The notes beneath the pieces are model-generated. The model made no database searches. It worked only from the letters and a program-made list of their open reading frames with translations, and was not told where the DNA came from. From an uncultured Chloroflexia bacterium (GTDB lineage: Bacteria; Chloroflexota; Limnocylindria; Limnocylindrales; CSP1-4): 64,000 bases of DNA. The stretch lies in contig CAWJQZ010000019.1 of NCBI GenBank assembly GCA_963844945.1, positions 48,775 to 112,774 on the forward strand, read 5' to 3'. The translations under genes were made by a program, and so were the position numbers. This document shows positions 22,487 through 55,534 of the stretch, piece after piece; position 1 is the stretch's first letter, and each line of letters begins with the position of its first letter.

Positions 22487-22562
22487 GCGGGAGTAGCTCA
22501 GTCGGTAGAGCGTCAGCCTTCCAAGCTGAATGTCGCGGGTTCGAGACCCGTCTCCCGCTCCA
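22487..22562 (+). tRNA. tRNA-Gly (anticodon TCC), 76 nt with encoded CCA
   Basis: GCGGGAGTAGCTCAGTCGGTAGAGCGTCAGCCTTCCAAGCTGAATGTCGCGGGTTCGAGACCCGTCTCCCGCTCCA. Acceptor GCGGGAG/CTCCCGC, D-arm GCTCAGTCGGTAGAGC, anticodon loop CTTCCAA, T-arm GCGGGTTCGAGACCCGT. Confidence 0.93.
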
Positions 22563-22858
22563 GTTCCTCGGTTCCGTGGTCATGGCGACACTAAGCCTGC
22601 GATCACTGGACATCCGCACGGCTCGTTCCGTTCCGCTGAGCCGCCGAAGAGTGCCGCCACAACGCTCGCAGACACGCAGCCGCGCAGATTCTCGACCGTA
22701 TGGCGCCGTTGTGGCTTGCCTCCGCCCCGCTTACGGTGTCGACGCCGCCCGAACACTGAGCACTCCTCGCCGGTCGAAGCCTGAGCAACCCTGACGGTCT
22801 CGACTGGCACCCTCTCGCGATCGTCGTCAACGCCGGAACGACCGTCTACCGGGCGACC

Positions 22859-23728
22859 TTGGCAGCAGGCTGGACGGCAGCGCGGACGCGATGGTGCGCC
22901 GCGGCCGACTGGGCAGCCTCCATGCTCACCCTGGGCACCATGGTCCTCGCGTCGATCGTCATCGTGCTCGGCCCTGCGCCGGACCTCGAGGCGGCACGCT
23001 CCTTCGCGGTCGTCGTGCTGATCCTGGTCGGGGCCGCATGGCTCCTCCTCTCGCTGGTCTCTGCCCAGCGACGCCCGGCGGACGGCCGACTGCGGTCCCC
23101 GACGACGACCGGCACTGGCGGCCGAGCCTCGTCTGGCGCACGTTCGGGAGGCGAGCGGGAGGCATCGACGCGCGGCCCACACCCCGGCCGCCGGGACCGC
23201 GCCGAGCCACTGGCGAGACCGACCCGCACGACGGCGTCCCAGGAGGGTCTCGTGGAGTTGCTGACGTGGAGGCTCAGGGTATCGACACTGTGGATCTTCC
23301 TCGCTGTCGGCACGCTGGCCGCCTTCTTCGCTGTCGTTATGCCGGCGGACGTCCTGAGTGAGTACCTCGCGACCGGGCAACTCGAGGGCGAGGCGATGGA
23401 CGCCACGATGCTGGCCCTGATGGTCGGGCTGTTCGTCCTCCTGCCTCTGGCGATGGCCTTCCTCACGCTGGCGCTGAGGGATCCGGTCGACCGCTTGGCG
23501 AACGGCATCGTGGGTGCTCTCGCCGCTGTGATGTGGACGTGGGATCTGGCTGAGTCCGTGAGCAAGGAGCCCGCGATCAGCGGTGGGCCTGTCCTCACGG
23601 CGACCTTGATCCTTGCCGGGCTGCTGATCGTCTGGCACGCTTGGAAGTGGCCCAAGACGGCGGAGCAGGGCCTGCCCGGCCGGCGACCGGTGACCGGTCC
23701 CGACCTGGGAGCCGCCAAACCCGTGTAG
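22859..23728 (+). CDS. membrane protein ORF; probably two genes (short 2-TM ORF 22859-~23070 and a 4-TM protein from GTG 23252) separated by a duplicated leader element
   Basis: Continuous frame, but the middle R/G/S/T-rich stretch coincides with a 150-bp repeat that recurs upstream of the next gene. AGGAGG lies 5 nt upstream of GTG 23252. The downstream part (VELLTWRLRVSTLWIFLAVGTLAAFFAVV...) has 4 TM helices. Confidence 0.5.
   Translation: MAAGWTAARTRWCAAADWAASMLTLGTMVLASIVIVLGPAPDLEAARSFAVVVLILVGAAWLLLSLVSAQRRPADGRLRSPTTTGTGGRASSGARSGGEREASTRGPHPGRRDRAEPLARPTRTTASQEGLVELLTWRLRVSTLWIFLAVGTLAAFFAVVMPADVLSEYLATGQLEGEAMDATMLALMVGLFVLLPLAMAFLTLALRDPVDRLANGIVGALAAVMWTWDLAESVSKEPAISGGPVLTATLILAGLLIVWHAWKWPKTAEQGLPGRRPVTGPDLGAAKPV
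23075..23227 (+). promoter_or_regulatory. copy 1 of a duplicated ~150-nt structured leader ending 18 nt before the AGGAGG-GTG start at 23252
   Basis: CCGGCGGACGGCCGACTGCGGTCCCCGACGACG...GAGCGGGAGGCATCGACGCGCGGCCCACACCCCGGCCGCCGGGACCGCGCCGAGCCACTGGCGAGACCGACCCGC. About 85% identical to copy 2 outside a variable ~30-nt middle. Confidence 0.45.
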
Positions 23729-23851
23729 GCGGCAGGTCTCCAGCTGGAAGACGACAAGCAGGACGGCTCCGGCCTGCCCCGAGACGGGCGACCGGGGCCG
23801 TTTCGTGCGGGGCAGCGGGCCAGCGCGGCTCGGCGAGGCGTCCGGCGGACG

Positions 23852-23993
23852 GCTGACTGCCGTCCCCGACGACGCACGGCACTGGCGACGCGTGGCCCGA
23901 CGGCCGAGCATGACGGGCGAGCGGGAGGCTCTGACGCGCGGCCCACGTTCCGGCCGCCGGGACCGCGCCGAGCCACTGGCGAGACCGACCCGC
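23852..23993 (+). promoter_or_regulatory. copy 2 of the duplicated leader, ending 8 nt before the GGAGGG RBS of methyltransferase 24016
   Basis: Contains perfect hairpin GGACGGC-TGACT-GCCGTCC and the conserved 3-prime block GAGCGGGAGGCTCTGACGCGCGGCCCACGTTCCGGCCGCCGGGACCGCGCCGAGCCACTGGCGAGACCGACCCGC. Confidence 0.45.
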
Positions 23994-24015
23994 TCGCGCA
24001 CGGAGGGCCGCGCGA

Positions 24016-24698
24016 TGGGACTGCGCAGATCGTTCTGGCTGCCGTTCTTCGGGGTGCCGCGCGGTCCGCTCGGGTGGGTCGGCGCTCGGCTGCTGCCGAA
24101 GGTCGCCCGGCCCCTCTATGCGATGGTGGCCGGGCAGCTGGACCTCCGGCCCGACGATTCGTTGCTTGAGGTTGGCTGCGGCTCCGCGGGGTTGCTCGTC
24201 GAGCACGCCTCCCACGTCCGCCACGTCGCCGGCCTGGACGCATCGGAGATCCAGGTGGACATGGCCAGGAAGCGGCTGGCCGACCGCATCTCCGCTGGAA
24301 CGGCCGAGATCGTCCTTGGCAATGCGATGGCGCTGCCGTGGGAGGACGGCCACTTCAGCGTCGTCGCCTCGGTCAACTGCCTGAAGTTCGTCCCCGATCC
24401 CCCGAAAGCCCTGAGCGAGATGCATCGGGTCCTCGGTCCCGACGGACGGCTGGTGCTCACGATCGACAAGCAGGCCGACAAGTGGGGCCGGTCGGGCAAG
24501 ATCGACGCGTTCGGCCAGTGGCAGTGGAGCGTGGATGACATGCGGCGGATGGTGGAGGAGGCCGGCTTCGCCGACGTCTCCGTGGCCGATATGCCGACCA
24601 AGCTGGGCCTTCAGTTCGTCCGTGGCGCGAAGCGCGCGGCGATCCCCGCCGCGGAGGTCGCCGAGACGCCAGAGCTCGTCGGGGCGGCGCCACGGTGA
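24016..24698 (+). CDS. class I SAM-dependent methyltransferase (UbiE/COQ5-like)
   Basis: Intact. LEVGCGSAGLLVEHASHVRHVAGLDASEIQVDMARKRL...MALPWEDGHFSVVASVNCLKFVPDPPKALSEMHRVLGPDGRLVL. GGAGGG RBS 8 nt upstream of ATG 24016. Confidence 0.8.
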
Positions 24699-25201
24699 GC
24701 ACGCACCTGACCGGGGACCGCCGCGCCGGCACGCCGCGGCCGCCCTCCCACCGGATGATCCGTGCCTTCGGAGTCGTCCACCTCGCCGGCCATCGGCTCA
24801 CGGGCGGGAGGCTCGGGCTTTCGCGTCCGACTCCCGCCCGCTGGGGTCACATGTGCCTCACCACGACCGGGCGCAGAACAGGCAAGAAGCGGCACGCGAT
24901 GCTCGGCTACTTCGATGACGGCCGGAACCTGGTCGCGCTGGCCGTGAACGCATGGGCGGATGCCGAGCCCGCCTGGTGGCTCAACCTCCAGGCGCATCCC
25001 GACGCTATCGTCGAGCTCAAGGACGGATCTCGGCAGGTCAGGGCGCGCGCGGCGCAGGGCGAGGAGCGGGCGCGCCTCTGGGCGCGCTGGCGCGAGCTGG
25101 GAGAGCGGTCGGGCGTGGCCGAGATCGCCGACATGGATGCCTACACCGCCCAGTTGTCGCGCGAACCGGCGGTCGTGGTGCTGGAGCCGCAGCCCGGCTG
25201 A
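24695..25201 (+). CDS. deazaflavin(F420)-dependent nitroreductase-family protein (Ddn/DUF385-like)
   Basis: Intact. LTTTGRRTGKKRHAMLGYFDDGRNLVALAVNAWADAEPAWWLNLQAHPDAIVELKDG matches the PNPOx-like F420H2-dependent reductase fold. Confidence 0.7.
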   Translation: MSTHLTGDRRAGTPRPPSHRMIRAFGVVHLAGHRLTGGRLGLSRPTPARWGHMCLTTTGRRTGKKRHAMLGYFDDGRNLVALAVNAWADAEPAWWLNLQAHPDAIVELKDGSRQVRARAAQGEERARLWARWRELGERSGVAEIADMDAYTAQLSREPAVVVLEPQPG

Positions 25202-25249
25202 GGACCCTGGCGCGATCGCAGCGCGACCGCGCCAGGAGGAGGCGACGAG

Positions 25250-26071
25250 ATGAAGCCGTCGACGGATCCGGTCGGCATGTACGTGGAGGAGTCGGGGGCT
25301 CCGGGCTCTCCAGCCATCGTGTTCCTTCACGGCGCAGGCCAGAGCTGCCGGGAGTGGCGCGGGCATATGGCGGGCCTCCCAGCCTTCCACTGTCTGGCTC
25401 CGGACCTGCCCGGCCACGGTCGGAGCAACCATCTGCCGCTGCCTTCGCAGGAGCGCCTGGTCGATGACATCGCCGTGCTCATCGAGAGGCGGGTGCCCGC
25501 GGGACGCGCACACGTCGTGGGCATCTCGTGGGGTGCCAATCTCGCCCAGGTCCTCATCCGGCGGCACCCCGACCGCGTCGACCGCGTGGTCTCGGACGGC
25601 ACACTGATCGCCTGGCCGGGCGGCCTGGTGAGGACTCTGCTGCTCGGGTTCTACGCACTGATGGTGCCGTTCCTGCACACCCGGCCGGTGCGGGCGCTGT
25701 ATCGGGACATCGTGGACGCAGCGGACCTTCGCCTCGCGTCTCGCACGGCGTACTGGCGCGCCGTGCGGCAGTGCATGGAAGGCTTCGACGCCGTGACCGA
25801 GGCCCCATGCCCGACCCTGCTCGTCGCCGGGGAGAGGGAGGGCTACGTGCGGCCGCCCGACGCCGCGCTGGCCGCGGTCATGCCCCATGCCGAGGCCTGG
25901 TACGCACCCGGCCTGGATCACTGCTGGCAACGCAGGGCGCCGGACCTCCACATCCGGATGGTCGAGGCCTGGTGCACCGGCCAGGTGCTGCCACCCGGAC
26001 TCCGGCCCGAGCTGACGCCGAAGACCGAAGCGGTGGAGCGGATGCGACGGAACATCCCGGCAGGCGCCTGA
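25250..26071 (+). CDS. alpha/beta hydrolase
   Basis: Intact. IVFLHGAGQS...VVGISWGANLAQ (GxSxG nucleophile elbow). Confidence 0.75.
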   Translation: MKPSTDPVGMYVEESGAPGSPAIVFLHGAGQSCREWRGHMAGLPAFHCLAPDLPGHGRSNHLPLPSQERLVDDIAVLIERRVPAGRAHVVGISWGANLAQVLIRRHPDRVDRVVSDGTLIAWPGGLVRTLLLGFYALMVPFLHTRPVRALYRDIVDAADLRLASRTAYWRAVRQCMEGFDAVTEAPCPTLLVAGEREGYVRPPDAALAAVMPHAEAWYAPGLDHCWQRRAPDLHIRMVEAWCTGQVLPPGLRPELTPKTEAVERMRRNIPAGA

Positions 26072-26086
26072 CAGGAGGTCCGACCC

Positions 26087-26827
26087 ATGCGACTCGCCCC
26101 ATCGCTGCATCGGCTCGGCGAGGAGATCGTCAGCTGCTACCTCCTCGAGGAAGCCGGAGCGGTCACGATCATCGACGCGGGCGTGCCCGCCTACTACTCC
26201 GACCTGACGACCGAGCTCGCGGCCATGGGCCGGACGATCGAGGACGTCCAGGCGCTCGTGCTGACCCATGGCCACGACGACCATCGCGGGTTCGCCGAGC
26301 GGCTGCGAGTGGAGCACGACGTGCCCGTGAGCATCCACGTGCTCGACCGGGCGCTGGCACAGGGCGAGGTCGGGAACCCGAGCGCCGGCATGGGCGAGCG
26401 CAAGCTCGGTTCCCTGCTGCGCTACATGCTGTGGCTCATCCGTCACGGCGCGATGCGAACCAAGGCTCTGACGGCGGTCGGCACCTTCGACCCAGGCACG
26501 ACGCTCGACGTGCCGGGCGCGCTGCATGTCATCCACACACCAGGACACACGCCCGGCAGCGTCACGTTGTACGCGCCGGGACACGACGCCGTCTTCGTCG
26601 GCGATGCGTTGGCGACGGACGCCGTGATCAGCGAGCGGCACGGTCCGCAGATCTGTCCCTTCGCTGCCGACCCCGACGTGGCCCTTGCATCCCTGGCGAA
26701 CATCGAGCGGCTCGAGGCGCACTGGCTGCTGCCTGGACACGGCAGCCCCTGGACCGACGGCGTCGCGGCCGCCGTGGCCGCAGCGCGTGAGGTCGGGGTC
26801 GGACACTTGGCCCGCGCGAAACGCTGA
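26087..26827 (+). CDS. MBL-fold metallo-hydrolase
   Basis: Intact. LVLTHGHDDHRG (HxHxDH) and HTPGHTPGSV. Confidence 0.8.
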   Translation: MRLAPSLHRLGEEIVSCYLLEEAGAVTIIDAGVPAYYSDLTTELAAMGRTIEDVQALVLTHGHDDHRGFAERLRVEHDVPVSIHVLDRALAQGEVGNPSAGMGERKLGSLLRYMLWLIRHGAMRTKALTAVGTFDPGTTLDVPGALHVIHTPGHTPGSVTLYAPGHDAVFVGDALATDAVISERHGPQICPFAADPDVALASLANIERLEAHWLLPGHGSPWTDGVAAAVAAAREVGVGHLARAKR

Positions 26828-27207
26828 TCGGGCAGGGGACCTCACCCCGCCCACGCGCATCGCAAGCGCATGGCCCAAGCGGCCGAATAGGAGTAGCGGC
26901 CCGCCGGCGCGACCCTTGGGGGCCTTACGGCACGCCGGTCTGATCCACACCGGCTACCGGGTCTCCCTGCCTGTTGCGACGCCGGGTACGCCCGCGCCGT
27001 CACCGCCCCGTGAGCGGCGACGAGCCTGGCGCGGCCGGGATCACGCAGCGCGACCTCCTGATCGAGATGCGCGAGGACATCCAAGCGCCGCGCTCCGTCG
27101 CGGAATCCGCGGCCCGCGACCACCGCACATCGAGAAGCTGTCGGCGATGAAGGGAGCTCGCGACTCCTACCGGTCTGTCCGACGGCCGGCCATTGAGGGT
27201 CCGCTCC

Positions 27208-27358
27208 AGACACCAAAACTGGACGCCCTCCGCTCGCGTCCCCACGCTCGCCGTCACAGTGCTTCGGCGCCCCGGCCTTCCAAGCTGAATGTCGCGGGTT
27301 CGAGACCCGTCTCCCGCTCCAGTTCCCCGTTTCGTGCTCAGCACGACACGATAACTGG
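27208..27358 (+). repeat. att-like repeat A: degenerate P-arm, tRNA-Gly 3-prime half (27275-27321) and downstream flank with arm motif
   Basis: GCCTTCCAAGCTGAATGTCGCGGGTTCGAGACCCGTCTCCCGCTCCA is identical to tRNA-Gly positions 30-76, followed by GTTCCCCGTTTCGTGCTCAGCACGACACGATAACTGG. Confidence 0.85.
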
Positions 27359-27529
27359 GTGGCCCGCCTTCTGCGCGACGGGTCGAGGATGCCGAACCGA
27401 GTGCTGAAGCGCTCGGCCACACTCTGCCGGCATACCATCCTCCGAGATAGGCGGCGGCTCGCGACGTACGCTGTCCGTGTCGCGGACCGCGCTCCTTGCG
27501 CTGCGCCGCCATGGCTGCCGGAGAGTCCG

Positions 27530-28417
27530 ATGACTGACGTCCTGCCCTCGTGGAACGAGGGGACCGCCAAAGCGGCGATCGTCGGGTTCGTCACGGCGGC
27601 GACCACGGTCGGCGATTGTGCCTACATCGCGCCCGCCGACCGGATCGCCACGTTCGACAACGACGGCACGCTCTGGGTGGAGCAGCCCATGCCGCCCCAG
27701 TTCGACTTCCTGCTCCGGACGTGGACCACCGAGGCACAGGCGGACCCGTCCCTCGCGAGCCGGCAGCCGTACAAGGCCATCCTCGAGAAGGACCTCGCGT
27801 TCTTCGAGGGCCTCGTGACGCAGGACCCGACGGTCGTGGCGTCCCTGGAGGGCGCTGCCGGCCGGTCCTGGGCCGGCTCGACGCCGGACGTGTTCGATGC
27901 CCAGGTGCGCGACTGGATCGACACCGTCACGCAGCCGCGGTTCGGCGTCGGCTACACGCATCTCGTCTACCGGCCGATGCTCGAGCTGTTCGACTACCTC
28001 AAGGCGCACGACTTCCGGGTCTTCGTGTGCTCCGGCGGCGGCCGCGACTTCATGCGCGTGTTCGCCGAGGAGGCCTGGGGCATCTATCGCGAGGACGTCA
28101 TCGGCAGCGCGCCGGAGTACACCTACGCGGACGGGAGGATCGTCCGTACCGACCGGCTGCTCGGGGGCCTCGCCCTGGGTCCGGGCAAGCCCGAGCACAT
28201 CTTCGCCCGGACGGGCCGGCTGCCGGCCTTCGCGGGCGGGAACGCGGACGTCGACATCGAGATGCTCGAGACCGCGAGGTTCGCCTTGCTCGTGGACCAC
28301 GACGACCCGGAGCGCGAGTACGCCTACACGAAGGCCGCCGAGCGGTCGCTCGGAGCGGCCGCGAATCGCGGCTGGACCGTCGTGAGCATGAAGGACGACT
28401 GGGCGACGATCTTCTGA
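27530..28417 (+). CDS. HAD-superfamily hydrolase (phosphatase-like)
   Basis: Intact. ATFDNDGTLWVEQP (DxDGT motif I), VCSGGGRDFMR, FAGGNADVDIEML. Confidence 0.7.
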   Translation: MTDVLPSWNEGTAKAAIVGFVTAATTVGDCAYIAPADRIATFDNDGTLWVEQPMPPQFDFLLRTWTTEAQADPSLASRQPYKAILEKDLAFFEGLVTQDPTVVASLEGAAGRSWAGSTPDVFDAQVRDWIDTVTQPRFGVGYTHLVYRPMLELFDYLKAHDFRVFVCSGGGRDFMRVFAEEAWGIYREDVIGSAPEYTYADGRIVRTDRLLGGLALGPGKPEHIFARTGRLPAFAGGNADVDIEMLETARFALLVDHDDPEREYAYTKAAERSLGAAANRGWTVVSMKDDWATIF

Positions 28418-28429
28418 GGAGCGAGTCAC

Positions 28430-29074
28430 GTGGTCGACCTCACCGCCATCGACATCCTCGTCAACCCCGACAGGGAGACGCTCGAACGCGCACGCGAGCT
28501 CAACGCCCGCATGCGGCGGAGCGTGCCCACCGGCTTCGCGCTCGATGCGACGCACCAGCCCCACATCACGACCGTGCAGCGATACGTGCGGACGGCGGAC
28601 CTCACGACGGTCTACGACGCTGTCGAGATGACGATCGCCGCCACCGATGCGGCCTCGCTCGCGTATCGCGCCGTCGCGATCCGGCACGCGGACTGGGGTG
28701 TGCCCGGCGAGGGCCTCGCGGTCATCGTCATCGAGCCCAGCCCGCAGGTGCTCGACCTCCAGGCGCGCCTCCTCGCGGCCGTCACGCCCTTCGTCGGGTC
28801 CCGAGGCACCGCTGCGGCCTTCGTGACCGATCCGGGCGAGGAGATCAGCCAGAGCACCCGCGACTGGGTTGATGGGTACGTGCCCGACCAGATCGGCCCC
28901 GGGAAGTACATCGCCCACATCACGGTCGGGTTCGCCACGCTCGACGACCTGAAGGTCATCGAGGCCGAGCCGTTCGGCCCGTTCGACGTCCACCCGGCCA
29001 GCGTCGCCGTGTACCACCTGGGGAACAGCGGCGCCGCACGCACCCTGCTCAGGGAATGGAGCCTGCTGGCGTAG
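28430..29074 (+). CDS. 2H phosphoesterase superfamily protein (LigT/2'-5' RNA ligase-like cyclic phosphodiesterase)
   Basis: Intact. Two H-x-T-x motifs, QPHITTVQ and IAHITVGF, about 130 aa apart. Confidence 0.65.
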   Translation: MVDLTAIDILVNPDRETLERARELNARMRRSVPTGFALDATHQPHITTVQRYVRTADLTTVYDAVEMTIAATDAASLAYRAVAIRHADWGVPGEGLAVIVIEPSPQVLDLQARLLAAVTPFVGSRGTAAAFVTDPGEEISQSTRDWVDGYVPDQIGPGKYIAHITVGFATLDDLKVIEAEPFGPFDVHPASVAVYHLGNSGAARTLLREWSLLA

Positions 29075-29121
29075 CGCGGACGTCCCGCGGAGTGTCGCGG
29101 GCGATGCGCGAACCGGCCCGT

Positions 29122-29276
29122 GACGACACGATAACTGGACACGTTTCGCTCGGGCCCCTGAGCACGATGCTGTTACGCACAGCCGCCGAGGCCTGCCAAG
29201 CTGAATGTCGCGGGTTCGAGACCCGTCTCCCGCTCCACTTCCTCGGTTCGTGCTCAGCACGACACGATAACTGGAC
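29122..29276 (+). repeat. att-like repeat B (best preserved): arm motif, tRNA 3-prime half (29191-29237) and arm motif
   Basis: GACGACACGATAACTGGACACGTTTCGCTCGGGCCCCTGAGCACGATGCTGTTACGC...CCAAGCTGAATGTCGCGGGTTCGAGACCCGTCTCCCGCTCCA CTTCCTCGGTTCGTGCTCAGCACGACACGATAACTGGAC. Confidence 0.85.
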
Positions 29277-29436
29277 GGCCGACTATCTCGACGAGCGGGT
29301 GATGCGGCCGAAGCGCCTGCTGTAGCGCTGGCGAACGGGACAGATGCGTTCGCGACGAGCACCCGGATGGCCCAGTGCACGTCGCGTCCCGCTCCCCGGT
29401 GCCACGCCCCGGTGCCACGCCCGGTGCGACGCGGCG

Positions 29437-29855
29437 TCAGTAGGTGAAGCCCCGGTCGATCGTCTCTGGGGTCAGGATGAGGCCATGGGCGGAGTCCGCG
29501 ATGCTCACCTTCTCCCATCGTTCGTGCTTCGCCGCCCACGGCGAACTGGGGTCCGTGGGGCAGGACTCGGCAGGGGGTGCGGCGACGAGCGAGACCCGGG
29601 CGGCGACCGTGCCGTCGGTCCCGGCGACCGCCTGAGCGGCGGCCGTGGCTGTCCCCTCCGTCTTGCGGGAGGTGCTGGGCCCACAGCCGAGGTCGCCGCA
29701 CGGCTCGGGCGCGGTCCCGCAGATCCATTCGAGGATTTCGTACCTGCCCGCGGCATTGAGTGAGACGACTTCGCCGGGTGCTAGCCCGGTCACGGTGATC
29801 GAGAGTCGCAGGCGACCGTCCGTCTCACCGGAGTCTTCGACGGCGCCGGCCATGG
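29437..29855 (-). CDS. hypothetical protein
   Basis: 139-aa ORF MAGAVEDSGETDGRLRLSITVTGLAPGEVV... with strong GC3 codon bias. No recognised domain. Confidence 0.35.
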
Positions 29856-34772: not shown

Positions 34773-34821
34773 GGCGGGACTGGCCGCCGCGCACTCCACG
34801 TCAGCCAAAGGAACGATCGCC

Positions 34822-39353: not shown

Positions 39354-39366
39354 CGTCAGCGCGCCC

Positions 39367-40622: not shown

Positions 40623-40646
40623 GCTTCTCCGACGGCGGCGCCGGCC

Positions 40647-43453: not shown

Positions 43454-44461
43454 ATGGACTTCGGATTCACGCTCAAGCCTGACCACGACATCGAACGCTT
43501 CATCGCGCTCACGAGGCGGGCGGAGGCTGCCGGGTTCAGCTACGGCTGGGTGTTCGACAATCACGTGCCGTTCAGGGAGGTGTATCCCCTCCTCACGCTG
43601 ATGGCCATCAACACCACGCGCATGCGCCTCGGCACCTGCGTGACGAACCCGGCAACGCGGGACCCGAGCGTGACAGCGAGCGCTCTCGCGACGCTCGATG
43701 AGATCTCGGGTGGCCGCATGGACCTCGGCATCGGCCGCGGTGACGCCTCGGTCCGCTCGCTCGGCAGGCCTCCCACGACCATGAAGACGCTGGAGCAGGC
43801 GGTGACGGTCATCCGCGACCTCGTCGAGGGCCGCACGACCGGATACGAGGGCGCCAGCTTGAGCCTGCCCTGGGCCAAGGGGTGGCAGCTGCCCACATGG
43901 ATCGCCGGCTACGGTCCGATGGCGCTCGCCCTGGCCGGCCGCACCGCCGACGGCCTGATCCTCCAGCTGGCGGATCCCGACCTGATCCGCTGGATGGTCG
44001 GCCTCATGCGTGATGCGGCCGAGACAGCCGGCCGGGATCCCGCCTCGATCAAGGTCCAGGCCGCGGCCCCAGCACACGTCGGCCGCATCGAGGAGTGCCG
44101 TGAGCATGTCCGCTGGTTCCCGGGCCTCGTCAGCGGTCACGTCGTCGACCTCGTGAACAGGTATCCAAGTGACCAGCTGCCCGGATCGTTGACCGGCTAC
44201 ATCCGAGATCGCGAGGGCAGCCACGATCGCCGCCGTGGCGAGTTCGGCGCTGCGAGCGCGGCGTTCGTCACGGACGATGTCGTTGATCGCTTCACCATCG
44301 TCGGCCCGCCCGAGGAGCACGTACGACGGCTCAGGGAACTCAGCGCGACCGGCGTCGACCAGTTCAACCTTTATCTCATGAGCGGGGACGAGGAAGCTCA
44401 GCTGGAGTGCTACGGCTCCACCGTCATCCCGGCGCTCAAGGCAGCGCTCGACGACGCCTGA
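43454..44461 (+). CDS. LLM-class F420-dependent (luciferase-like) oxidoreductase
   Basis: Intact. MDFGFTLKPDHDIERFIALTRRAEAAGFSYGWVFDNHV..., TIM-barrel luciferase-like family. Confidence 0.75.
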   Translation: MDFGFTLKPDHDIERFIALTRRAEAAGFSYGWVFDNHVPFREVYPLLTLMAINTTRMRLGTCVTNPATRDPSVTASALATLDEISGGRMDLGIGRGDASVRSLGRPPTTMKTLEQAVTVIRDLVEGRTTGYEGASLSLPWAKGWQLPTWIAGYGPMALALAGRTADGLILQLADPDLIRWMVGLMRDAAETAGRDPASIKVQAAAPAHVGRIEECREHVRWFPGLVSGHVVDLVNRYPSDQLPGSLTGYIRDREGSHDRRRGEFGAASAAFVTDDVVDRFTIVGPPEEHVRRLRELSATGVDQFNLYLMSGDEEAQLECYGSTVIPALKAALDDA

Positions 44462-44499
44462 CCCGGGACGCAGCCTGCTGAGCAGGCCCGCCACCCGAG

Positions 44500-44724
44500 C
44501 TACGCGTCAGAGTCGCGGCGATCGATGCGCCGCCCATCGCCGCGTCTCGCCACGGCCGAGCCGATGACGACGCCGAAGCCGGCGCCGAGCGCGATGCCAA
44601 GCGCGATCTCGCCGAAGATGACGCCAAACGCGATCCCGACCCCGGCGCCGATGGCGATCCACACTCCCAGCGCATCCGTCTTCCTCTTCGCGTCGGCCTG
44701 CGGCGTCTTGTCGCTCTCCGCCAT
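44500..44724 (-). CDS. small Gly-zipper membrane protein
   Basis: ALGVWIAIGAGVGIAFGVIFGEIALGIALGAGFGVVIGSAV. Confidence 0.45.
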   Translation of the reverse strand: MAESDKTPQADAKRKTDALGVWIAIGAGVGIAFGVIFGEIALGIALGAGFGVVIGSAVARRGDGRRIDRRDSDA

Positions 44725-44745
44725 GACGTCCCCTTTTGGTGCGTG

Positions 44746-45123
44746 TCAGTGTCTGGCCTGGTTGTAGACGACGCCGCCGAGGAACGAGCCCCAGAGGGCG
44801 ACGAGCAGCCAGAACGAGCTGTCGCCGGCGTTGCCCAGGCTCGCGAACTGCCAGGCCCAGTACGCCTGCACGGCGACGGCCATGACGCAGAACGAGAAGC
44901 GCATCGCGTTGCCGACGATGAACGTCTGACGCTCGTCCTGGGTCTCGTCGATGCGCTTGCCGCGCCATGCCATGAATGCGGCGGCGAGCCCGCTTACCAC
45001 GAGCAGGAAGATGCCGCCGGCGATGAGTCGTCCGGCGTTCGGGCCGTCAGACCACAGGCCGATGACGAGATAGGGCAGCGCGAGCACCGCCGCGATGAGG
45101 ATGGTCAGGCGTGCGGTCCTCAT
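44746..45123 (-). CDS. membrane protein (DUF2178-like, partner of XRE regulator)
   Basis: 125 aa, 4 TM helices. Directly downstream of a small XRE HTH gene. Confidence 0.5.
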   Translation of the reverse strand: MRTARLTILIAAVLALPYLVIGLWSDGPNAGRLIAGGIFLLVVSGLAAAFMAWRGKRIDETQDERQTFIVGNAMRFSFCVMAVAVQAYWAWQFASLGNAGDSSFWLLVALWGSFLGGVVYNQARH

Positions 45124-45124
45124 G

Positions 45125-45325
45125 TCAGTCTCCCTGCGTGAAACAGAAGAGCTCCTCGATGGTCACGCCCAGCATCCTGGCCAGCTTCCAGGCGAGCTCG
45201 AGAGACGGGTTGTAGCGGCCGCGCTCGATGGAGATGATCGTCTGGCGGCTGACCCCGGTCTTGGCAGCGAGGTCCTCCTGGCGCAGACCCGCCGCCACGC
45301 GCAGATCCTTGACCCGATTGACCAT
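45125..45325 (-). CDS. XRE-family helix-turn-helix transcriptional regulator
   Basis: LRVAAGLRQEDLAAKTGVSRQTIISIERGRYNPSLELAWKLARMLGVTIEELF. Confidence 0.8.
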   Translation of the reverse strand: MVNRVKDLRVAAGLRQEDLAAKTGVSRQTIISIERGRYNPSLELAWKLARMLGVTIEELFCFTQGD

Positions 45326-45509
45326 CACAGGTCCTCTGTCTCGCCGTGTAAAGTTGGCTTGACATGACTCTAGCAAGGAGAGGCACGCGCGTCAAGCCTC
45401 CTTTACATCACGCCAGGTGAACTCGCGTGCCCAGGTGCTGCCCTGTTCGAGCGGCAGGGGCGTCGGTTTTCCCGTGGCGACCCCCGACGTGGGGAGTAAC
45501 CTTCGGTCC

Positions 45510-45782
45510 ATGAAGGGCGATCGGGTCGAGGCAGTGGTCGACACGGGGCAGGGCGTGCAGACATTCGACATCGTCGCGACGCGAGCCGGTCGTCGCATCG
45601 AGGTCGTCACCTCCCGCGGGGTGGTCGAGGTGCGCGAGGTGACGCGGACGGGCACTCCGGTGCGCACCGGCCGGTTCATGACCAGCCGCCTCATCGCCCT
45701 CGTCGAGCATCCGGCGATCGACGAGAGGGGCCGTGTCGAAGTGACGACCCGGCACCGGCTCGAGGCCCGCGATCACCGATAG
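45510..45782 (+). CDS. hypothetical protein
   Basis: MKGDRVEAVVDTGQGVQTFDIVATRAGRRIEVVTSRGVVEVREV..., GC3-rich. No recognised domain. Confidence 0.35.
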   Translation: MKGDRVEAVVDTGQGVQTFDIVATRAGRRIEVVTSRGVVEVREVTRTGTPVRTGRFMTSRLIALVEHPAIDERGRVEVTTRHRLEARDHR

Positions 45783-45888
45783 TCGGCCGGCCGTTCGTGA
45801 TATCGGTCTGCGGACGGTGGCAGAGCCTCTGTCCGTGACGGGTTTCCTGCGCTACCCTCGGTCGCACACGTCGCGTCGGGGTGCCGGG

Positions 45889-46013
45889 TGGTCTGCTCGA
45901 TCTGCGGGACGGAGAACCGACCGGGACGGAGGTTCTGCGGAGGCTGCGCGGCCCCGCTCGCGCTTGTCTGCCCGTCCTGCGGCGTCGCCAACGAGCCGGA
46001 GATGCGCTGCTAG
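45889..46013 (+). pseudogene. double zinc-ribbon fragment (N-terminal module typical of actinobacterial adenylyl-cyclase/ATPase regulators)
   Basis: VVCSICGTENRPGRRFCGGCAAPLALVCPSCGVANEPEMRC then stop. Two CxxC...CxxC pairs in 40 aa. Confidence 0.45.
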
Positions 46014-46453
46014 GCCGCCCGGGCGGTGGCTTCCCCGACGAGGACGGCCCCGGGCGGGGCGACCGCCTGGAGCCGGGCCGCCGTGTTGACGAGATCCCCG
46101 GCCACCATCCCCTGGCCGGTCGCGCCGACGGTCACCGCCGCTTCACCGGTCAGGACCCTGGCGCGGGCGGCGAACGTGGGGCCGAGCCTCCGGACCGCAG
46201 CGACGAGCTCGAGGCCGGCCCGCACCGCCCGCTCGGCGTCGTCCTCGTGGGCGACCGGGGCACCCCAGACCGCCATGACCGCGTCGCCGATGAACTTCTC
46301 GACGCTCCCGCCGTGGCGGGCGATCACCTCGCCGGCGAGCTCGAAGTAGCGGGAGAGGATGTCGCGGACCTCCTCCGCGTCGCGCTCCTCGGCGAAGGGC
46401 GTGAACCCGACGAGGTCCGCGAAGAGCACCGAGACGTGCCGCCGCTCGGCCAC
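46010..46453 (-). pseudogene. class III adenylyl/guanylyl cyclase catalytic domain, truncated at its C-terminus
   Basis: RHVSVLFADLVGFTPFAE...VEKFIGDAVMAVWGAP...GDLVNTAARLQ. Ends GEATARAA-stop, about 40 aa short of a full CHD. Its stop overlaps the zinc-ribbon stop at CTAG 46010-46013. Confidence 0.6.
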
Positions 46454-46798
46454 GGGAACGGGAGCGCGTGCCGGCGCTTCGGCGCGCCGCGGTGCCGGAG
46501 GGGACGGGGTCGCTCCGGCCTCCGTCGCGATCGTCTTCGAGCCGGCCGGGGAGCAGTGCTAACGGCCCAGGCATGCATCGGACGACACCAGTCATCCCGG
46601 TGCCCGCCACAGCCGGGCATGTGAGTCCAGCGCGGCCGTGAATTACCCTCATCGGCGCACGGGCGGCAGGTGGTCCACGCTGGAGTCTGGCTCGACCGGT
46701 GAGGCATCCCGGCGAATGGGCCGATGACCCATCGCGGACCGTCGACGGCGCCTCGAGAGCTCGGGGCGCCGCCTTCAGGGCCAGCCCCGGTTCGCGAG

Positions 46799-47680
46799 CT
46801 AGGCGAGGAACCCCTCGACGAGTGCCGCCGTCTCGTCCGGCTGCTCGAGCTGCGGGAGGTCCCCGGCGCGCTCGATCGTCGTGCGCGAGAGGTGCTCGTT
46901 GGCGGCGGTGAGAGCATCCGATGCCGCGGCGTCGGTGAAGCGCGGGTGGTCGCCGAAGACGAGCAACGTCGGGTTCGCCAGGCGCCCGTACGCGTCGCCC
47001 GCGCGCGGGTCGTTGAGCAGCCCAGAGACGAAGGCGAGCGGTGCCCGCCAGGCGCCCGGCTGCTGGCAGGTCCGCCAGCAGTAGCGCTCGTACCCCGGGG
47101 GGATCCGCGCCGGGTCGGCGAATGTCTGGGCGAGGAACCAGCGGATCACCCGGCGGCGGGCGAGGATCGCGAAGAGGAGCCTGCCGACCCCCGTCGAGCG
47201 CAGGAACCTGTAGAGGGTCTGCGGGGCTCGGCCGGCGCCGCCCTCGAAGCGTCCGAACCCGGTCGGGCTGATCAGGACGATGCGCCCGAACCGCTCCGGA
47301 TGCTCGGCGGCCGCCACGACCACGTACTGCCCTGGCAGAGACAGGGCGACGACGTCGACGGAGGTCTCGCCCGGCTGCAGGGCCGCCGCCCGGATGGTCT
47401 CGAGTTGCTCGTCGTAGAGCGCGGGGCCGTAGGGCGCATCGGGCCGCTCCGACGTGCCGAAGCCGAGCCAGTCCACGAGCACGACGCGCCGGTGCGCGGC
47501 CAGCCGCGTCGCGAGGGGCGCGAGCTCCACGCCCGTCCCGGCCGCGTTGAAGCTGTGCAGGAGGAGGGCGGTCGGTCCCTCGCCGAGGACGTAGCCCGCG
47601 ACCCGGCCTGCGGGTGTCGCCACGTCGAGCGGGAGGCCCTGGACGGGAGGAGGAAGGGGGATCGTCATGGGGCCGATCAT
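46799..47680 (-). CDS. alpha/beta hydrolase
   Basis: Intact. LLLHSFNAAGTG...VDVVALSLPGQ nucleophile elbow. Confidence 0.7.
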   Translation of the reverse strand: MIGPMTIPLPPPVQGLPLDVATPAGRVAGYVLGEGPTALLLHSFNAAGTGVELAPLATRLAAHRRVVLVDWLGFGTSERPDAPYGPALYDEQLETIRAAALQPGETSVDVVALSLPGQYVVVAAAEHPERFGRIVLISPTGFGRFEGGAGRAPQTLYRFLRSTGVGRLLFAILARRRVIRWFLAQTFADPARIPPGYERYCWRTCQQPGAWRAPLAFVSGLLNDPRAGDAYGRLANPTLLVFGDHPRFTDAAASDALTAANEHLSRTTIERAGDLPQLEQPDETAALVEGFLA

Positions 47681-47853
47681 CCCACGTGCACGGGCGGGAC
47701 GGCGGCGATGCCGCCGAGGACGCTCGACGCACCGCTGCTCCCCGAGGTGGGCTGCGTCGTCGGCAGGCCCGGCCGTGAACAGGCATCCGCCCGGCTGCGT
47801 TACGCTGAGCGCAGGGCGTCGCGCTGGGCGTGGCCGCGGAAGCCAGGGGGAGC

Positions 47854-49431
47854 ATGAGCCTTCAGTCCGTCGACGCCGTCACCGGCCACGGTTCGTACAT
47901 GGCCCTCGCGCCGGATGTCCGGGTCGTCGCCGGACGGCTCGACGACCTCCCGTCCGACGTGCTCGACGGGCTGCGCCACCACGTCGCGGGCGGCGGATCG
48001 CTCCTCATCGCCCCGGAGCCCGGCGACGCGATCGCCGCCGAGATGGCGGGCGTGGCGGTCGCGGGCGTGCATCCGGCCGCGGAATGGTTCGTCATCCTCG
48101 CCGCTCGCCCCGAGGCGGTCCGTCTCGATGCTGAAGCGCCGCTGACGTCGGTCCTGCGATCGCTGGCCCCCCTCTCGGCCGACGTCGCCGTGGCGGCGGC
48201 GACGAGCATCGCGCTCACCGACCGGCCGGTGATCACCGTCCGGTCGGTCGGGTCCGGGCGGGTCGTCGCCGTCGGGGTCGCGGACCTGGAGCGGGTCATC
48301 GCCCACCCGACGCTCGGTCGCTACGTGGGACGACTCCTGCGCACCGTCCCGCCCGACGCCGCGCGGGAGATCCGCGTCGCGATCGTGGGCTATGGACCGT
48401 ACGGCGGGATGGGCTACCTCCACGGGCTCGCGTGCGCGGAGACAGAGGGGCTCCGGCTGACGGCGGCCGCGGACCAGGTCCCGGAGCGCCTCGCCGCCGC
48501 CGCCGCCGACTTCACCGGTCTACGCACGTATCCGGACGCGGCATCGCTCGCCCGCGACGACGCGGTAAACCTCGCGATCGTCGCGACGCCCCCCGCCAGC
48601 CATGCGACGATCGCCATCGAGCTCCTGCGCGCCGGCCGGCACGTGGTGCTCGAGAAGCCGATGTGCCTGACCGTGGCAGAGGCGGACCTGCTCGTCGCGG
48701 AGGCCACACGGGCAGAACGGATGCTCACCGTCCACCAGAGCCGGCGGTGGGATCGGGACTTCTTGGCTCTTCGCGAGGTCGTGTCGAGCAGCCGGATCGG
48801 CGAGGTTTTCAACGTCGAGACGTTCGTGGGCGGCTTCGACCACCCGTGCCGCCTGTGGCACTCGGACGAGGACGCCTCCGGCGGGGCGATCTTCGACTGG
48901 GGCTCGCATCACGTCGACTGGATCCTCCGCCTGTACGGCTCGCGCCCGGTGCGGGTCCTCGTGTCGGCCCACAAGCGTGCCTGGCACGACGTGACGAACG
49001 CCGACCAGGTAACGGTGTGGATGCAGTGGTCCGACGGCCGCGAGGCCACGTTCCGCCAGAGCGAGATCGCGGCCATCCGCCGCCCCAAGTTCTACGTGCA
49101 GGGGACCGCCGGCACGATCGAGGGCCACTACCGGCCTCTCGTCGCGGAGACGGTCGAGCCGGGCCGCGGGTACATCGATCGTCACGAGCACCATGCCGAG
49201 GCGCCGGTCGCGCTCCGCATCGCCCGGTACGAGGGTCCGGGCCGGATCGGGCAGGAGGTCGTCCAGCCGGCCGCGAGCGCCGGCTGGACGTTCCACCGCA
49301 ACCTGGCCGACCACCTGCTGCTCGGCGAGCCCCTTGCCGTGCCACCCATGGAGAGCCGCGAGGTCGTCGCCGTCCTCGAGGCGGCCCAACGGTCGGCGGC
49401 CGCCGGCGGTGTCCTCGTCGACGTGGGCTGA
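47854..49431 (+). CDS. fusion: ThuA-like N-terminal domain plus Gfo/Idh/MocA-family oxidoreductase
   Basis: IRVAIVGYGPYGGMGYLHG (Rossmann GxGxxG), EKPMCLTVAEADLL. About 170-aa N-terminal extension. Confidence 0.65.
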   Translation: MSLQSVDAVTGHGSYMALAPDVRVVAGRLDDLPSDVLDGLRHHVAGGGSLLIAPEPGDAIAAEMAGVAVAGVHPAAEWFVILAARPEAVRLDAEAPLTSVLRSLAPLSADVAVAAATSIALTDRPVITVRSVGSGRVVAVGVADLERVIAHPTLGRYVGRLLRTVPPDAAREIRVAIVGYGPYGGMGYLHGLACAETEGLRLTAAADQVPERLAAAAADFTGLRTYPDAASLARDDAVNLAIVATPPASHATIAIELLRAGRHVVLEKPMCLTVAEADLLVAEATRAERMLTVHQSRRWDRDFLALREVVSSSRIGEVFNVETFVGGFDHPCRLWHSDEDASGGAIFDWGSHHVDWILRLYGSRPVRVLVSAHKRAWHDVTNADQVTVWMQWSDGREATFRQSEIAAIRRPKFYVQGTAGTIEGHYRPLVAETVEPGRGYIDRHEHHAEAPVALRIARYEGPGRIGQEVVQPAASAGWTFHRNLADHLLLGEPLAVPPMESREVVAVLEAAQRSAAAGGVLVDVG

Positions 49432-49436
49432 GGACG

Positions 49437-50398
49437 TGGACCCCGTCGGCTTCGGCGTCATCGGGGCGCGCTCGTTCGTCGCGACCCGGGCGGTGATCCC
49501 GGCGATCCGGGCGTCCGCCTCGGCGCGGCTGGTCGCCGTCGCGAGTCGAGGCGGACCGGTCTCGGCAGGCCTCGAACCGGTCGACGCCGGATCGTACGCG
49601 GCGGTGCTTGCGAACCCTCAGGTCGAGGCCGTGTACATCCCGCTCCCCAACGGGCTCCACCGGGAATGGGCCGAACGGGCGGCGGCGGCCGGGAAGCACG
49701 TCCTCTGCGAGAAGCCGCTCGCGCCGAGCGCCGCGGATGCGGACGCGATGTTCGCCGGTGCGGCGAGGTCGGGCGTCCTGCTCGCCGAAGCCTGGGCCAC
49801 GCCCTTCCAGCTTCGTTGGCGGCGCGCGCTGGAGATGGCCGGCTCGGGCCGGCTCGGGTCGGTCCACCACGTCCGGACCGAGTTCACGTTCACGATCGCG
49901 CCCGACCGGGCAGGGGACTTCCGCTGGGACCCCGCGCAGGGCGGGGGCGCGCTGCTCGACGTCGGTGTCTACTGCCTCGGGCCGGCCGTCGGGCTCTGGG
50001 GTGCCGAGCCGGTGGACGTGTCGGCGAGCGTCTCCCCGGGACGGACCGGCGTCGACATCACGACCGCCGCCTGGTGCGACTGGGGGGATGGCCGGACGGC
50101 GTCCATGCTCGCCTCCTTCGAGCTGCCGGAGCGCCAGCTCCTCGAGGTCGCCGGGACGGGCGGTCGCCTGGTCATCGAGGATCGGGCGCACACGGGTGGC
50201 GTCGGCGCGAGCACGATCGAGCTCGTGCTTCGGGACGGCCGGCGCGAGACGCTCCACCTGCCCGACGACGATCCGTACGAGCGGATGGTCGCCGCCTTCG
50301 CCGCGGCGGTCCGCGGCGAAGCCGTCTGGCCGCGCCCCGCCTCCGACGTCCTGGGATCGCTCGGCCTGCTCGACCGCATCCGCTCGAGCGCCAGCTGA
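49437..50398 (+). CDS. Gfo/Idh/MocA-family oxidoreductase
   Basis: GFGVIGARSFVATRAVIPAI...CEKPLAPSAADADAM. Confidence 0.7.
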
Positions 50399-50497
50399 CG
50401 AGCAGCGCGGCGTGGCCGCAGGCCGCCCGCGAGGGCCGGGACGGCCACGCGCGCGGTCGACAGGAGCGCTTTCGGGGTCACCGACGACGCCTGCCTC

Positions 50498-50560
50498 GCT
50501 GGATGGCTCGTGTTCGAGACCCTCTCCCGCTCCATCTCCTCCGGTCCGTTCACGACCGAT
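50498..50560 (+). repeat. terminal degenerate tRNA-Gly 3-prime-end copy G (T-arm plus acceptor only), candidate distal island boundary
   Basis: GCTGGATGGCTCGTGTTCGAGACCCTCTCCCGCTCCATCTCCTCCGGTCCGTTCACGACC aligns to GCTGAATGTCGCGGGTTCGAGACCCGTCTCCCGCTCCACTTCCCCGGTTCGTGCTCAGCACGAC. Confidence 0.55.

Positions 50561-53648: not shown

Positions 53649-55534
<1,886 letters not shown>

Follow-up and report, generated by a model that had tools for sequence, protein, structure and literature searches.

The stretch of DNA analyzed here, hereafter the window, comprises 64,000 nt of assembly GCA_963844945.1 (contig CAWJQZ010000019.1, positions 48,775–112,774), and all window coordinates given below count from its first letter. 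An intact tRNA-Gly(TCC) gene at 22487–22562 on the + strand (ARAGORN; Rfam tRNA, 72.7 bits) heads an island of ~28 kb, in which gene blocks of unrelated content lie behind the tRNA and are bounded by junction sites. GC content is 68.7–73.0% per island segment versus 75.4% in the left flank. The last 47 nt of the tRNA gene, from the anticodon stem to the 3′-end (22516–22562), which we annotate as the putative core of the attachment (att) sites attB and attL, recur downstream in seven copies designated A to G, all on the + strand and with 0, 1, 0, 4, 0, 4, and 8 mismatches, respectively. Every copy starts at G30–C31 of the anticodon stem and runs to the tRNA 3′-end without the tRNA 5′ half. The single mismatch of copy B is a T to G change in the anticodon loop, and two substitutions are common to copies D and F.

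In copies A–E the core is embedded in a composite repeat of ~190 nt, consisting of a P arm of ~77 nt, the 47-nt core, and a P′ arm of 40–70 nt, and the final P arm bases partly mimic the 5′ strand of the anticodon stem. A junction profile was built from 42 junctions of other genomes, and its nhmmer matches in the window were exactly the tRNA and copies A–G, eight sites in total, with none elsewhere. Junction A (27206–27394, E = 9.6e-42) has a divergent P arm, a core at 27275–27321 without mismatches, and a P′ arm carrying the arm motif. Complete P arm, core, and P′ arm are found in junction B (29115–29308, core 29191–29237 with one mismatch, E = 3.6e-53), which has an orthologue in the relative L001 (related loci are cited by L numbers), in junction C (30672–30845, core 30748–30794 without mismatches, E = 7.6e-53), and in junction D (33691–33878, core 33767–33813 with four mismatches, E = 3e-44). 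The divergent P arm type of A returns in junction E (37181–37322, E = 2.2e-25), where a core without mismatches (37245–37291) is followed by a short P′ arm. Junction F (40505–40628, E = 1.4e-39) matches profile positions 10–133 and retains the P arm and a core with four mismatches (40576–40622) but no P′ arm, a GC-rich hairpin following directly after the core. At copy G (~50489–50555, E = 8.1e-7), a degenerate core with seven mismatches and a 1-nt deletion is joined to a P′-like remnant and lacks a P arm. This copy is the next-best local core match in the whole window, its alignment extends into P′, and it is the oldest recognizable junction. All of these sites lie on the + strand.

The tRNA itself is followed by the P′ arm of attL (22563–22667, +), which was delimited by the match of profile positions 78–172 to 22513–22610 and by comparison with the loci L078, L157, L158, and L161. 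It contains the degenerate palindrome ACACTAAGCCTG and the arm-type motif GATCACTGGACATCC at 22601–22615, and a P-arm-like inner motif at 22629–22667 is linked by repeat family D13 to 40527–40565. In integrase-bearing relatives the integrase gene starts in this region, and it is absent there in the window. Segments 1–5 accordingly have core and P′ at their left end and P arm and core at their right end, and segment 6 has only the short P′ of junction E. An 18-nt arm motif, ACGACACGATAACTGGAC, was found six times in the window at ≤3 mismatches, always at junctions, with 0 matches expected by chance. Across the family, the P arm contains the arm motif ACACGATAACTGGAC and an inner GCTCGG...GTGCTACAGCGCTCAG block, and the P′ arm contains the palindrome CGTGCTCAGCACG followed by ACAC(T/G)CAGCCTG, with extra copies of the arm motif in some junctions. 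A structured RNA or an attC-like hairpin was also considered for the junction and was rejected, since no Rfam family matched, RNAalifold recovered only the tRNA T-arm, and the P arms of 42 sequences were on average no more stably folded than shuffled ones (mean z = 0.09). A promoter and terminator scan of the island returned nothing at the junctions, and phage and plasmid collections matched the composite repeat through its tRNA part only.

The segments between the junctions carry diverse cargo, as assigned with Pfam, Rfam, and blastn. Segment 1 (22611–27205, GC 71.3%) encodes a 268-aa open reading frame (ORF), an S-adenosylmethionine-dependent methyltransferase, an F420H2-dependent quinone reductase-like protein, an alpha/beta hydrolase, and a metallo-beta-lactamase-fold protein, and segment 2 (27395–29114) encodes a HAD-family hydrolase and a 2H-like protein. 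Segment 3 (29309–30671) is a composite remnant, in which the start of a ‘228-aa ORF’ cassette is fused to the end of a cyclase-AAA-TPR cassette: its first ~600 nt (29310–29910) showed 94% blastn identity to three tandem ‘228-aa ORF’ cassettes of L023, and its last ~780 nt (29892–30673) showed 81–83% identity to cassette 3′-ends in L008, L029, L063, L106, and L154. Segment 4 (30846–33690) holds an arylsulfatase gene at 31034–33394 on the − strand (Pfam Sulfatase, 9.8e-66), then the 3′ tail of the 228-aa cassette at 33452–33690; L023 carries a homologous sulfatase cassette flanked by a junction on each side. In segment 5 (33879–37180), a riboswitch-like element was found together with a 154-aa ORF and with genes for a YdhR/ABM-like protein and for a STAND NTPase that has a winged-helix regulator domain. 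The genes of segment 6 (37323–40504), for a MarR regulator, an ABC-2 permease, and an ABC ATPase, lie on the − strand throughout. Segment 7 (40629–50488), an old, rearranged stretch of the array, comprises an AT3-SGNH acyltransferase, a luciferase-like monooxygenase cassette (43379–44465, 92% identical to the second cassette of L016), a helix-turn-helix protein, cyclase-cassette fragments, an alpha/beta hydrolase, and two Gfo/Idh/MocA genes. Its two fragments of the 5′ part of the cyclase cassette, at 45814–45993 (+) and, inverted, at 46012–46466, match cassettes in at least eight loci, and the pieces of this cassette in the window (29892–30672 and 45814–46466) are split and lie 15 kb apart. 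No integration or transfer gene was found in the island segments, and no recombinase in the island or the window, by Pfam searches of the called island genes, a six-frame regular expression (regex) for tyrosine and serine recombinase motifs, an integrase hidden Markov model (HMM), and tblastn.

Much of this had been described beforehand in a sequence-only reading of the letters. The intact tRNA-Gly with six co-oriented 47-nt 3′ copies and a terminal copy G was recovered by ARAGORN, Rfam, and the junction profile, and the unrelated cargo and the lack of integrases were likewise borne out; the per-segment GC that it had proposed checking proved lower than that of the left flank. Its composite repeat of ~150 bp is real at A–E but measures ~190 nt, and its division into identical copies A–C and drifted copies D–F fits A, C, D, and F but neither B, with one mismatch, nor E, with none.

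Several features of the cargo are recorded here as side observations. The most widespread cassette of the family is the complete cyclase cassette, whose ~3.6 kb code for a ~1170-aa zinc-ribbon-adenylate/guanylate cyclase-AAA-TPR protein; it was found in L005, L008, L016, L025, L029, L106, L125, and L154, and stands first after the tRNA in at least L005, L016, and L025. Three matches to the c-di-GMP-II-GAG riboswitch variant (RF03169), all on the + strand and scoring 68–77 bits against a gathering score of 40, were located at 23149–23233, 23915–23999, and 34212–34297. The two in segment 1 lie 766 nt apart in a local tandem duplication, one of them inside the 268-aa ORF, and the third is just upstream of the 154-aa ORF in segment 5. 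Certain cassettes seem to arrive with a riboswitch of their own.

Next, the distribution of the junction was determined. Scanning a genome collection with a P-arm 20-mer, for which a uniform-base estimate gives ~4 chance matches, returned 29 loci, all of them in Chloroflexota metagenome-assembled genomes (MAGs), which comprise 24 species representatives, and a 21-mer scan of metagenomes returned at least 120 contigs, mostly from peat and wetland samples. The family counts given below were drawn from 152 loci, which contain 152 complete cassettes. The junction profile identified 312 junctions across these loci, with up to eight sites per locus and a median spacing of 1.6 kb (mode 1–2 kb). P arm, core, and P′ arm were all kept in 124 of the 312, and many partial matches end at contig edges. 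In each of the 95 loci with two or more junctions, the junctions were co-oriented. A full tRNA-Gly(TCC) was present on the junction strand in 34 loci and a full tRNA-Arg(TCT) in three; the tRNA stood at the upstream end of the array in the loci inspected, and wherever both were in view the tRNA part of the junction matched the head tRNA of its own locus. Complete cassettes most often held one called gene (90 of 152), with two in 28 and none in 21, and the cassette genes showed no orientation bias (99 on the tRNA strand, 103 opposite).

The tRNA part of the junction varies within the family. In a subfamily (L004, L012, L017, L024, L030, and also L144), the P arm of the family precedes the 3′ half of tRNA-Arg(TCT), the tRNA that also heads these arrays; no integrase for this subfamily was identified among the collected loci. 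P arms also occur beside other tRNA-like 3′ halves in L009, L014, and L019, the last a Dehalococcoidia MAG. The P arm is modular with respect to the tRNA core. A few truncated repeat copies without a core were seen (L006 at 4284, L020, and L031 at 4825), and neither terminal inverted repeats nor target-site duplications were seen at the junction repeat. The best relatives of the aminotransferase flanking the island are MAGs labelled Chloroflexi, Chloroflexota, or Candidatus Limnocylindria, which places the host among uncultured high-GC Limnocylindria-like Chloroflexota and not among the actinobacteria. Exact-sequence look-ups of two proteins encoded in the window flanks, g21 and g47, returned no record. 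We conclude that the junction is a lineage-wide att site in these bacteria.

Among viral contigs there was one real match, L035 (IMG/VR contig, 1–7250), in which a different, satellite-like element encoding a D5-type primase, a DNA methylase, and a terminase small subunit abuts a junction core cut at the T-loop; a junction truncated in the same way occurs in L028 (~2337–2436). These two sequences suggest a second element family that may target the T-loop of the same tRNA sequence. In L111 (~2100–2140), a junction carries a tandem-duplicated anticodon stem-loop (GCCTTCCAAGCCGAA|GCCTTCCAGGCTCAATG), which looks like a scar at the presumed crossover site and would be consistent with crossover there; a wrapped tRNA called by ARAGORN in L111 was discarded as an artefact of its circular-topology mode.

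We then searched ~930 kb of loci for a recombinase using Pfam, the motif regex, phmmer, HMM search, and tblastn, the last three being used too because the array integrase has a box II of AGW type, outside the strict motif regex. One intact enzyme was found, a 303-aa tyrosine recombinase of L078. Its gene starts ~80 nt after a full tRNA-Gly(TCC) plus P′ arm, the next P arm and core follow 7.6 kb downstream, and the P′ arm and arm motifs of L078 match the window junctions. This element, which also encodes a Replic_Relax protein, toxin-antitoxin modules, and proteins without assigned function, is the cassettes' autonomous counterpart. Searching a protein database with the L078 integrase returned thousands of Chloroflexota homologues, and all six further contexts examined (L157, L158/159/160, L161, L162/163, L164, and L165), which together with L078 make seven independent contexts, had the order tRNA-Gly(TCC), P′, ~100 nt, integrase gene on the same strand, with an ACAC(G/C)ATAACTGGAC-type motif at or just before each integrase start. 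Integrase genes of this type are thus linked to tRNA-Gly(TCC). No P arm-core site was found in L157, L162, or L164, each followed for 10 kb, or in L165, whose contig ends after 3.9 kb. The elements of L157, L162, and L164 carry restriction-modification and helicase genes, and that of L162 also a second integrase. Among the array heads found through the P arm, an intact integrase was present at one of 34. Truncated remnants of an L078-type integrase lie directly after core and P′ in L074 and L140, a C-terminal fragment of one lies in L129, and a fragment of a different tyrosine recombinase lies in L045.

The L078 integrase combines PF00589 with a SAM-like N-terminal domain and has core-binding and catalytic domains only. 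The best models for the array integrase were XerC and XerD (~140 bits, below their cut-offs), its score on the integron integrase model TIGR02249 was 43–49 bits against a cut-off of 265, and the closest solved structure to the L078 enzyme was Escherichia coli XerD (1a0p), with an end-to-end alignment. Simple tyrosine recombinases without an arm-binding domain are a minority type among mobile-element integrases (PMC8138268). The arm motifs recur on both sides of the core, as in classical attP. A derivation of the P arm from the 5′-end of the integrase gene was considered and rejected, the similarity being at motif level only (GATAACTGGAC, GCTGCTRCARCGCTCA); we interpret these similarities as the probable recurrence of binding motifs on the two arms and not as homology.

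Two further observations concern the surroundings of the integrase and of the head tRNA. In L122, an integrase gene at 8354–9487, with 45–60% identity to that of L078 and a frameshift near 9011, is transcribed away from tRNA-Gly, on whose 3′ side at least four cassettes follow, giving an integron-like layout. L080 is 100% identical to L122 from the tRNA 5′-end through two cassettes and different upstream, and L122 may therefore be a chimeric assembly. In the integrase-bearing loci L158 and L161, the region upstream of tRNA-Gly(TCC) contains genes of glycogen metabolism (GH57, phosphorylase, glycogen synthase), and homologues in the window (1–5200; also compared with L002) lie ~19 kb upstream of tRNA-Gly. 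tRNA-Gly(TCC) may sit within a loosely conserved chromosomal neighbourhood. A 91-nt tRNA-Ala(CGC) called by ARAGORN at 54642–54732 (−) is antisense to a well-supported coding region (54483–55538), and a comparable call in L002 falls within a GHMP-kinase gene; both are probably false positives.

Comparison of the cassettes among loci revealed that they have been reshuffled. Full-length homologous cassettes recur across loci with their borders at junctions. Neighbours were unrelated in 19 of 20 comparisons of homologous cassettes at 85–95% identity and differed in 10 of 41 comparisons at ≥95% identity. In one genome, two copies of a SnoaL cassette (L007 and L031) are 98% identical and are flanked by different neighbours on either side. 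When nearly identical cassettes stand beside different neighbours, the point at which identity gives way to unrelated sequence mostly coincides with a border of the 47-nt core.

The history of the window array was examined against its closest relative, L001, over the flank and segments 1–3. L001 has the same order, running from the tRNA through segment 1 (resolved to 25906) and segment 2 to junction B and the beginning of segment 3, and its divergence from the window is uneven, with identities of 87–93% in the flank, 98.1–98.7% in segment 1, 91.1% in segment 2, 98.5% at junction B, and 96.6% at the start of segment 3. Because the identity of segment 1 exceeds that of the flank, the head segment has been exchanged between the lineages much more recently than they diverged, whereas segment 2, by its identity, looks vertically inherited. 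An apparent replacement around junction A in L001 (2180–3910) was discarded as a homopolymer assembly artefact: 1.7 kb of poly-T, poly-C, and poly-A runs in the public ENA contig, called as a 406-aa gene, mask the junction A region. The window array is part fossil, in that segments 3, 4, and 7 consist of deleted or rearranged cassette fragments and cores B, D, F, and G are mutated. Since the segment between F and G holds cassette pieces, one of them inverted, the outer boundary at G is supported, and decay through deletion and inversion is evident. The core mismatches do not rise steadily with distance from the tRNA, and D and F share two substitutions; they therefore partly reflect donor alleles or internal events.

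The earlier suggestion that differential decay reflects integrations of different ages accordingly needs qualification: the series is non-monotonic and is no simple record of age, and the shared D and F substitutions look like a donor allele rather than drift. Its two proposed mechanisms fared better: serial integration at one tRNA agrees with the hybrid att junctions and with the order tRNA-Gly, P′, integrase ... P arm-core in the autonomous relative L078, and a cassette array with its recombinase encoded elsewhere fits the family as a whole, with 152 cassettes, a 1.6 kb median spacing, an integrase at one of 34 heads, and reshuffling. Comparison with relatives, also proposed there, yielded uneven divergence, though with the order of L001 kept through segments 1–3, and neither a strain with a subset of segments nor an empty tRNA-Gly site; the relative at 75% identity (L002, L003) has no tRNA-Gly at the syntenic position. 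Nor were the dispersed non-tRNA repeats or the paralogous pseudogene family seen that it had named as contrary outcomes.

Taken together, the locus is best interpreted, with a probability of roughly 70%, as a tandem array into which elements of a single family, occurring across Limnocylindria-like Chloroflexota, have inserted serially and site-specifically at the tRNA-Gly(TCC) anticodon loop, leaving integrase-less, att-flanked cassettes resembling cis-mobilizable elements (CIMEs) and having integron-like dynamics. The catalyst would be the 303-aa Xer-like ‘simple’ tyrosine recombinase, which in autonomous relatives is the first gene after the tRNA and P′, with its start codon in or beside the arm motif. 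On this model, recombination by the integrase would take place between attP (P arm-core-P′) and the anticodon loop of the tRNA, with a 7-nt overlap bracketed by inverted core-type binding sites that the anticodon stem could supply. Each insertion would swap the tRNA 3′ half of the element into the gene and push the old half, with everything behind it, downstream, so that repeated insertion would leave P arm-core-P′ junctions. The perfect cores of A, C, and E would thereby be explained, because each insertion must rebuild a working tRNA. Any pair of junctions could then serve as attL- and attR-like partners, and an integrase-less cassette could be excised as a circle with one attP and re-inserted with integrase supplied in trans, or in cis from an autonomous element landing in the array. 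That an L078-type integrase acts on these sites, that integrase-less cassettes are acted on by it in trans or in cis, and that crossover falls in the anticodon loop are what the sequences lead us to infer.

Several points weigh against this interpretation. The 64-kb window contains no integrase, and the integrase of the family lacks an arm-binding domain despite the conserved arm motifs. The homologous integrase of L122 lies on the 5′ side of tRNA-Gly, unlike the usual layout. Excised circular forms, which the sequence-only reading had proposed to look for, were not found, and no contig with a terminal overlap was present among the collected contigs. The switch points at the core are indecisive, because homologous recombination in the longest identical stretch predicts the same, and in one comparison the identity switches at the outer edge of the P arm. 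Metagenome contigs can, moreover, be chimeric at repeats such as the tRNA. Finally, since L001 keeps the order through segments 1–3, part of the array has been inherited and not recently assembled.

The question on which the interpretation chiefly turns is whether integrase-less cassettes are actively mobilized or are remnants reshuffled by homologous recombination. If decay alone were responsible, the segments would be wrecks of full-size elements that have lost their integrases, and reshuffling would occur only by homologous recombination between the ~200-bp repeats. An origin of this kind is accepted for CIMEs (PMC5704250) and for tycheposon islands (10.1101/2020.12.28.424599), and decay agrees with the large size of the integrase-bearing relatives (7.6 kb in L078, >10 kb in L157, L162, and L164), with the truncated integrase remnants beside P′ arms in L074, L140, and L045, and with the deletion and rearrangement scars in window segments 3, 4, and 7. 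However, integrase remnants were found in only ~6 of the 152 loci, and random deletion should often remove an arm, whereas 124 of the 312 junctions keep P arm, core, and P′. The cassettes also cluster in size at one gene instead of following random deletion sizes, and the same cassettes recur in unrelated arrays with borders exactly at the junctions. We therefore regard pure decay as unlikely, at odds of distinctly less than one in three, and prefer serial integration with mobilizable cassettes.

Readings in which the junction is not an att site of a tRNA-targeting element fare much worse. A generic dispersed repeat, such as a miniature inverted-repeat transposable element (MITE), a repetitive extragenic palindromic (REP)-like sequence, or a tRNA-derived repeat resembling short interspersed nuclear elements, lying near the tRNA by chance, would account for a ~190-nt composite that is short, abundant, conserved, and non-coding and of which a few copies lack the core. 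It is very improbable given the uniform orientation in all 95 multi-copy loci, the matching full tRNA-Gly or tRNA-Arg on the junction strand in 37 loci, the lack of terminal inverted repeats and target-site duplications, and the lack of copies outside the array in the 64-kb window. That the 47-nt copies are paralogous tRNA pseudogenes arising by tandem or segmental duplication agrees with their being direct repeats of part of a tRNA gene, yet has even less to recommend it: the copies start at a common point in the anticodon stem and all miss the tRNA 5′ half, the flanking arms are absent upstream of the real tRNA, and the intervening segments are mutually unrelated. Because the copies are co-oriented and headed by the matching tRNA across loci, the repeat is neither a dispersed MITE- or REP-like family nor a tRNA pseudogene family. 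Least credible of all is a classical integron in which IntI acts on attC sites. The mostly single-gene cassettes and the simple Xer-like tyrosine recombinase, a type to which IntI also belongs, recall such a system, but a TIGR02249 score of 43 bits against the cut-off of 265, junctions that are conserved in sequence and unremarkable in folding (mean z = 0.09), gene strands divided 99 to 103, and sites that contain a tRNA half all contradict it. Membership among the integrons is thus refuted, and a functional analogy may stand.

Integrons are the textbook platform for stockpiling single-gene cassettes, while tandem tRNA islands are usually viewed as graveyards of large elements. The arrays resemble integrons in having a fixed primary site, a co-oriented array of mostly single-gene cassettes with their own sites, cassettes that are shared and reshuffled, and a simple tyrosine recombinase without an arm-binding domain. 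Beyond the cassette array itself, however, none of the integron hallmarks is present: there is no IntI-type integrase or IntI signature, no attC-type hairpin, and no Pc-driven co-orientation of genes. In place of attC there is a double-stranded att site around a tRNA 3′ half, and the integrase, instead of residing next to the array, is usually missing from it.

The nearest precedents are found among tRNA- and gene-end-targeting elements. In ICESt1 and ICESt3 of Streptococcus thermophilus, CIMEs and the tandem accretion of ICEs (integrative and conjugative elements) and of IMEs (integrative and mobilizable elements) have been described (PMC5704250). Like CIMEs, the window segments lack integrases, keep attL and attR, stand in tandem at the 3′-end of a target gene, and have att sites in common with autonomous relatives, and as in CIME and ICE systems the composite structures would arise by site-specific accretion (PMC5704250). 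Going by what defines a CIME, the segments would belong to this class, since they are att-flanked, have no integration or transfer genes of their own, and have sites in common with the L078 element; for excision or transfer with an integrase-bearing partner, the reshuffling of cassettes and their uneven divergence give indirect support. CIMEs are, however, described as occasional decayed partners of ICEs and IMEs (PMC5704250), whereas integrase-less units are the rule here; the enzyme is a 303-aa Xer-like one, a cassette usually holds one gene, and no conjugation module was seen. Within the Chloroflexota, 15 of 31 islands at ssrA in Dehalococcoides lack an integration module and were proposed as CIMEs (PMC3146451). 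They too are arranged in tandem behind a small RNA gene, with 3′-end direct repeats and extra conserved flanking nucleotides, but they target the transfer-messenger RNA gene, have a 20-bp repeat, use a CcrB-type serine recombinase in a six-gene module, and are multi-gene (PMC3146451), in contrast to the tRNA-Gly or tRNA-Arg target, the 47-nt core with ~150 nt of conserved arms, the tyrosine recombinase, and the mostly single genes of the present arrays. The tycheposons of Prochlorococcus, judged on island architecture from the published description alone, are similar in carrying cargo at tRNA genes, in newcomers pushing older units inward, in scattered partial tRNAs and degenerate remnants, and in most islands lacking an active element; their remnants are characterized as degenerate, no single-gene units with conserved full att arms are reported for them, and their hallmark genes and host differ (10.1101/2020.12.28.424599).

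The logic of tRNA integration on which the Islander and TIGER tools rest, in which an integrase interrupts a tRNA gene that the island then completes again, the fragment thereby displaced is left as a mark of the far end, and tandem arrays occur (PMC4383910, PMC12424338), applies here as well: an intact tRNA is followed by 3′ repeats, and the block of identity starts in the anticodon stem-loop. An integrase beside the att site is missing from the window and present in L078, L157, L158, L161, L162, L164, and L165. Both tools are described as mapping integrase-bearing islands (PMC4383910, PMC12424338), and arrays of ~1.6-kb integrase-less units may be missed by them. The logic of tRNA integration and tandem accretion is thus already known (PMC4383910). 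What sets the present arrays apart from known systems, in scale and unit, is the combination of single-gene units with complete arms, up to eight sites, occurrence in many species, an integrase at one of 34 heads, and a short Xer-like enzyme. Full-text literature searches returned no description of such arrays in the Limnocylindria-like lineage, for which the site's occurrence in more than 150 loci, as arrays of mostly single-gene cassettes, suggests a hitherto undescribed, integron-like mode of gathering genes.

A broader proposal can be put forward tentatively, and we hold it somewhat short of even odds: that the family is an independently evolved functional analogue of the integron, with a tRNA (Gly-TCC, or Arg-TCT in the sister subfamily) as its primary site, in which single-gene, non-autonomous cassettes, each with a complete, double-stranded attP of ~200 bp around a tRNA 3′ half, would be excised, exchanged across species, and re-inserted by a trans-acting Xer-like recombinase, usually encoded elsewhere or on transient autonomous elements, and would form a community-wide cassette pool in peat and soil. 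The junction family is intermediate between integrons and tandem tRNA islands, in that ordinary tRNA-targeted chemistry is combined with one-gene units bearing a full att site. Such arrays may be missed by integrase-keyed island finders, and the junction profile offers a direct route to cataloguing, from metagenomes, the pool of accessory genes in these bacteria. If the cassettes are mobilized in trans, the 303-aa recombinase and the ~200-bp att site would constitute a defined pair open to experiment, and cassette-based genome plasticity would have a second route with a distinct mechanism, used by an abundant uncultured lineage of soil and peat.

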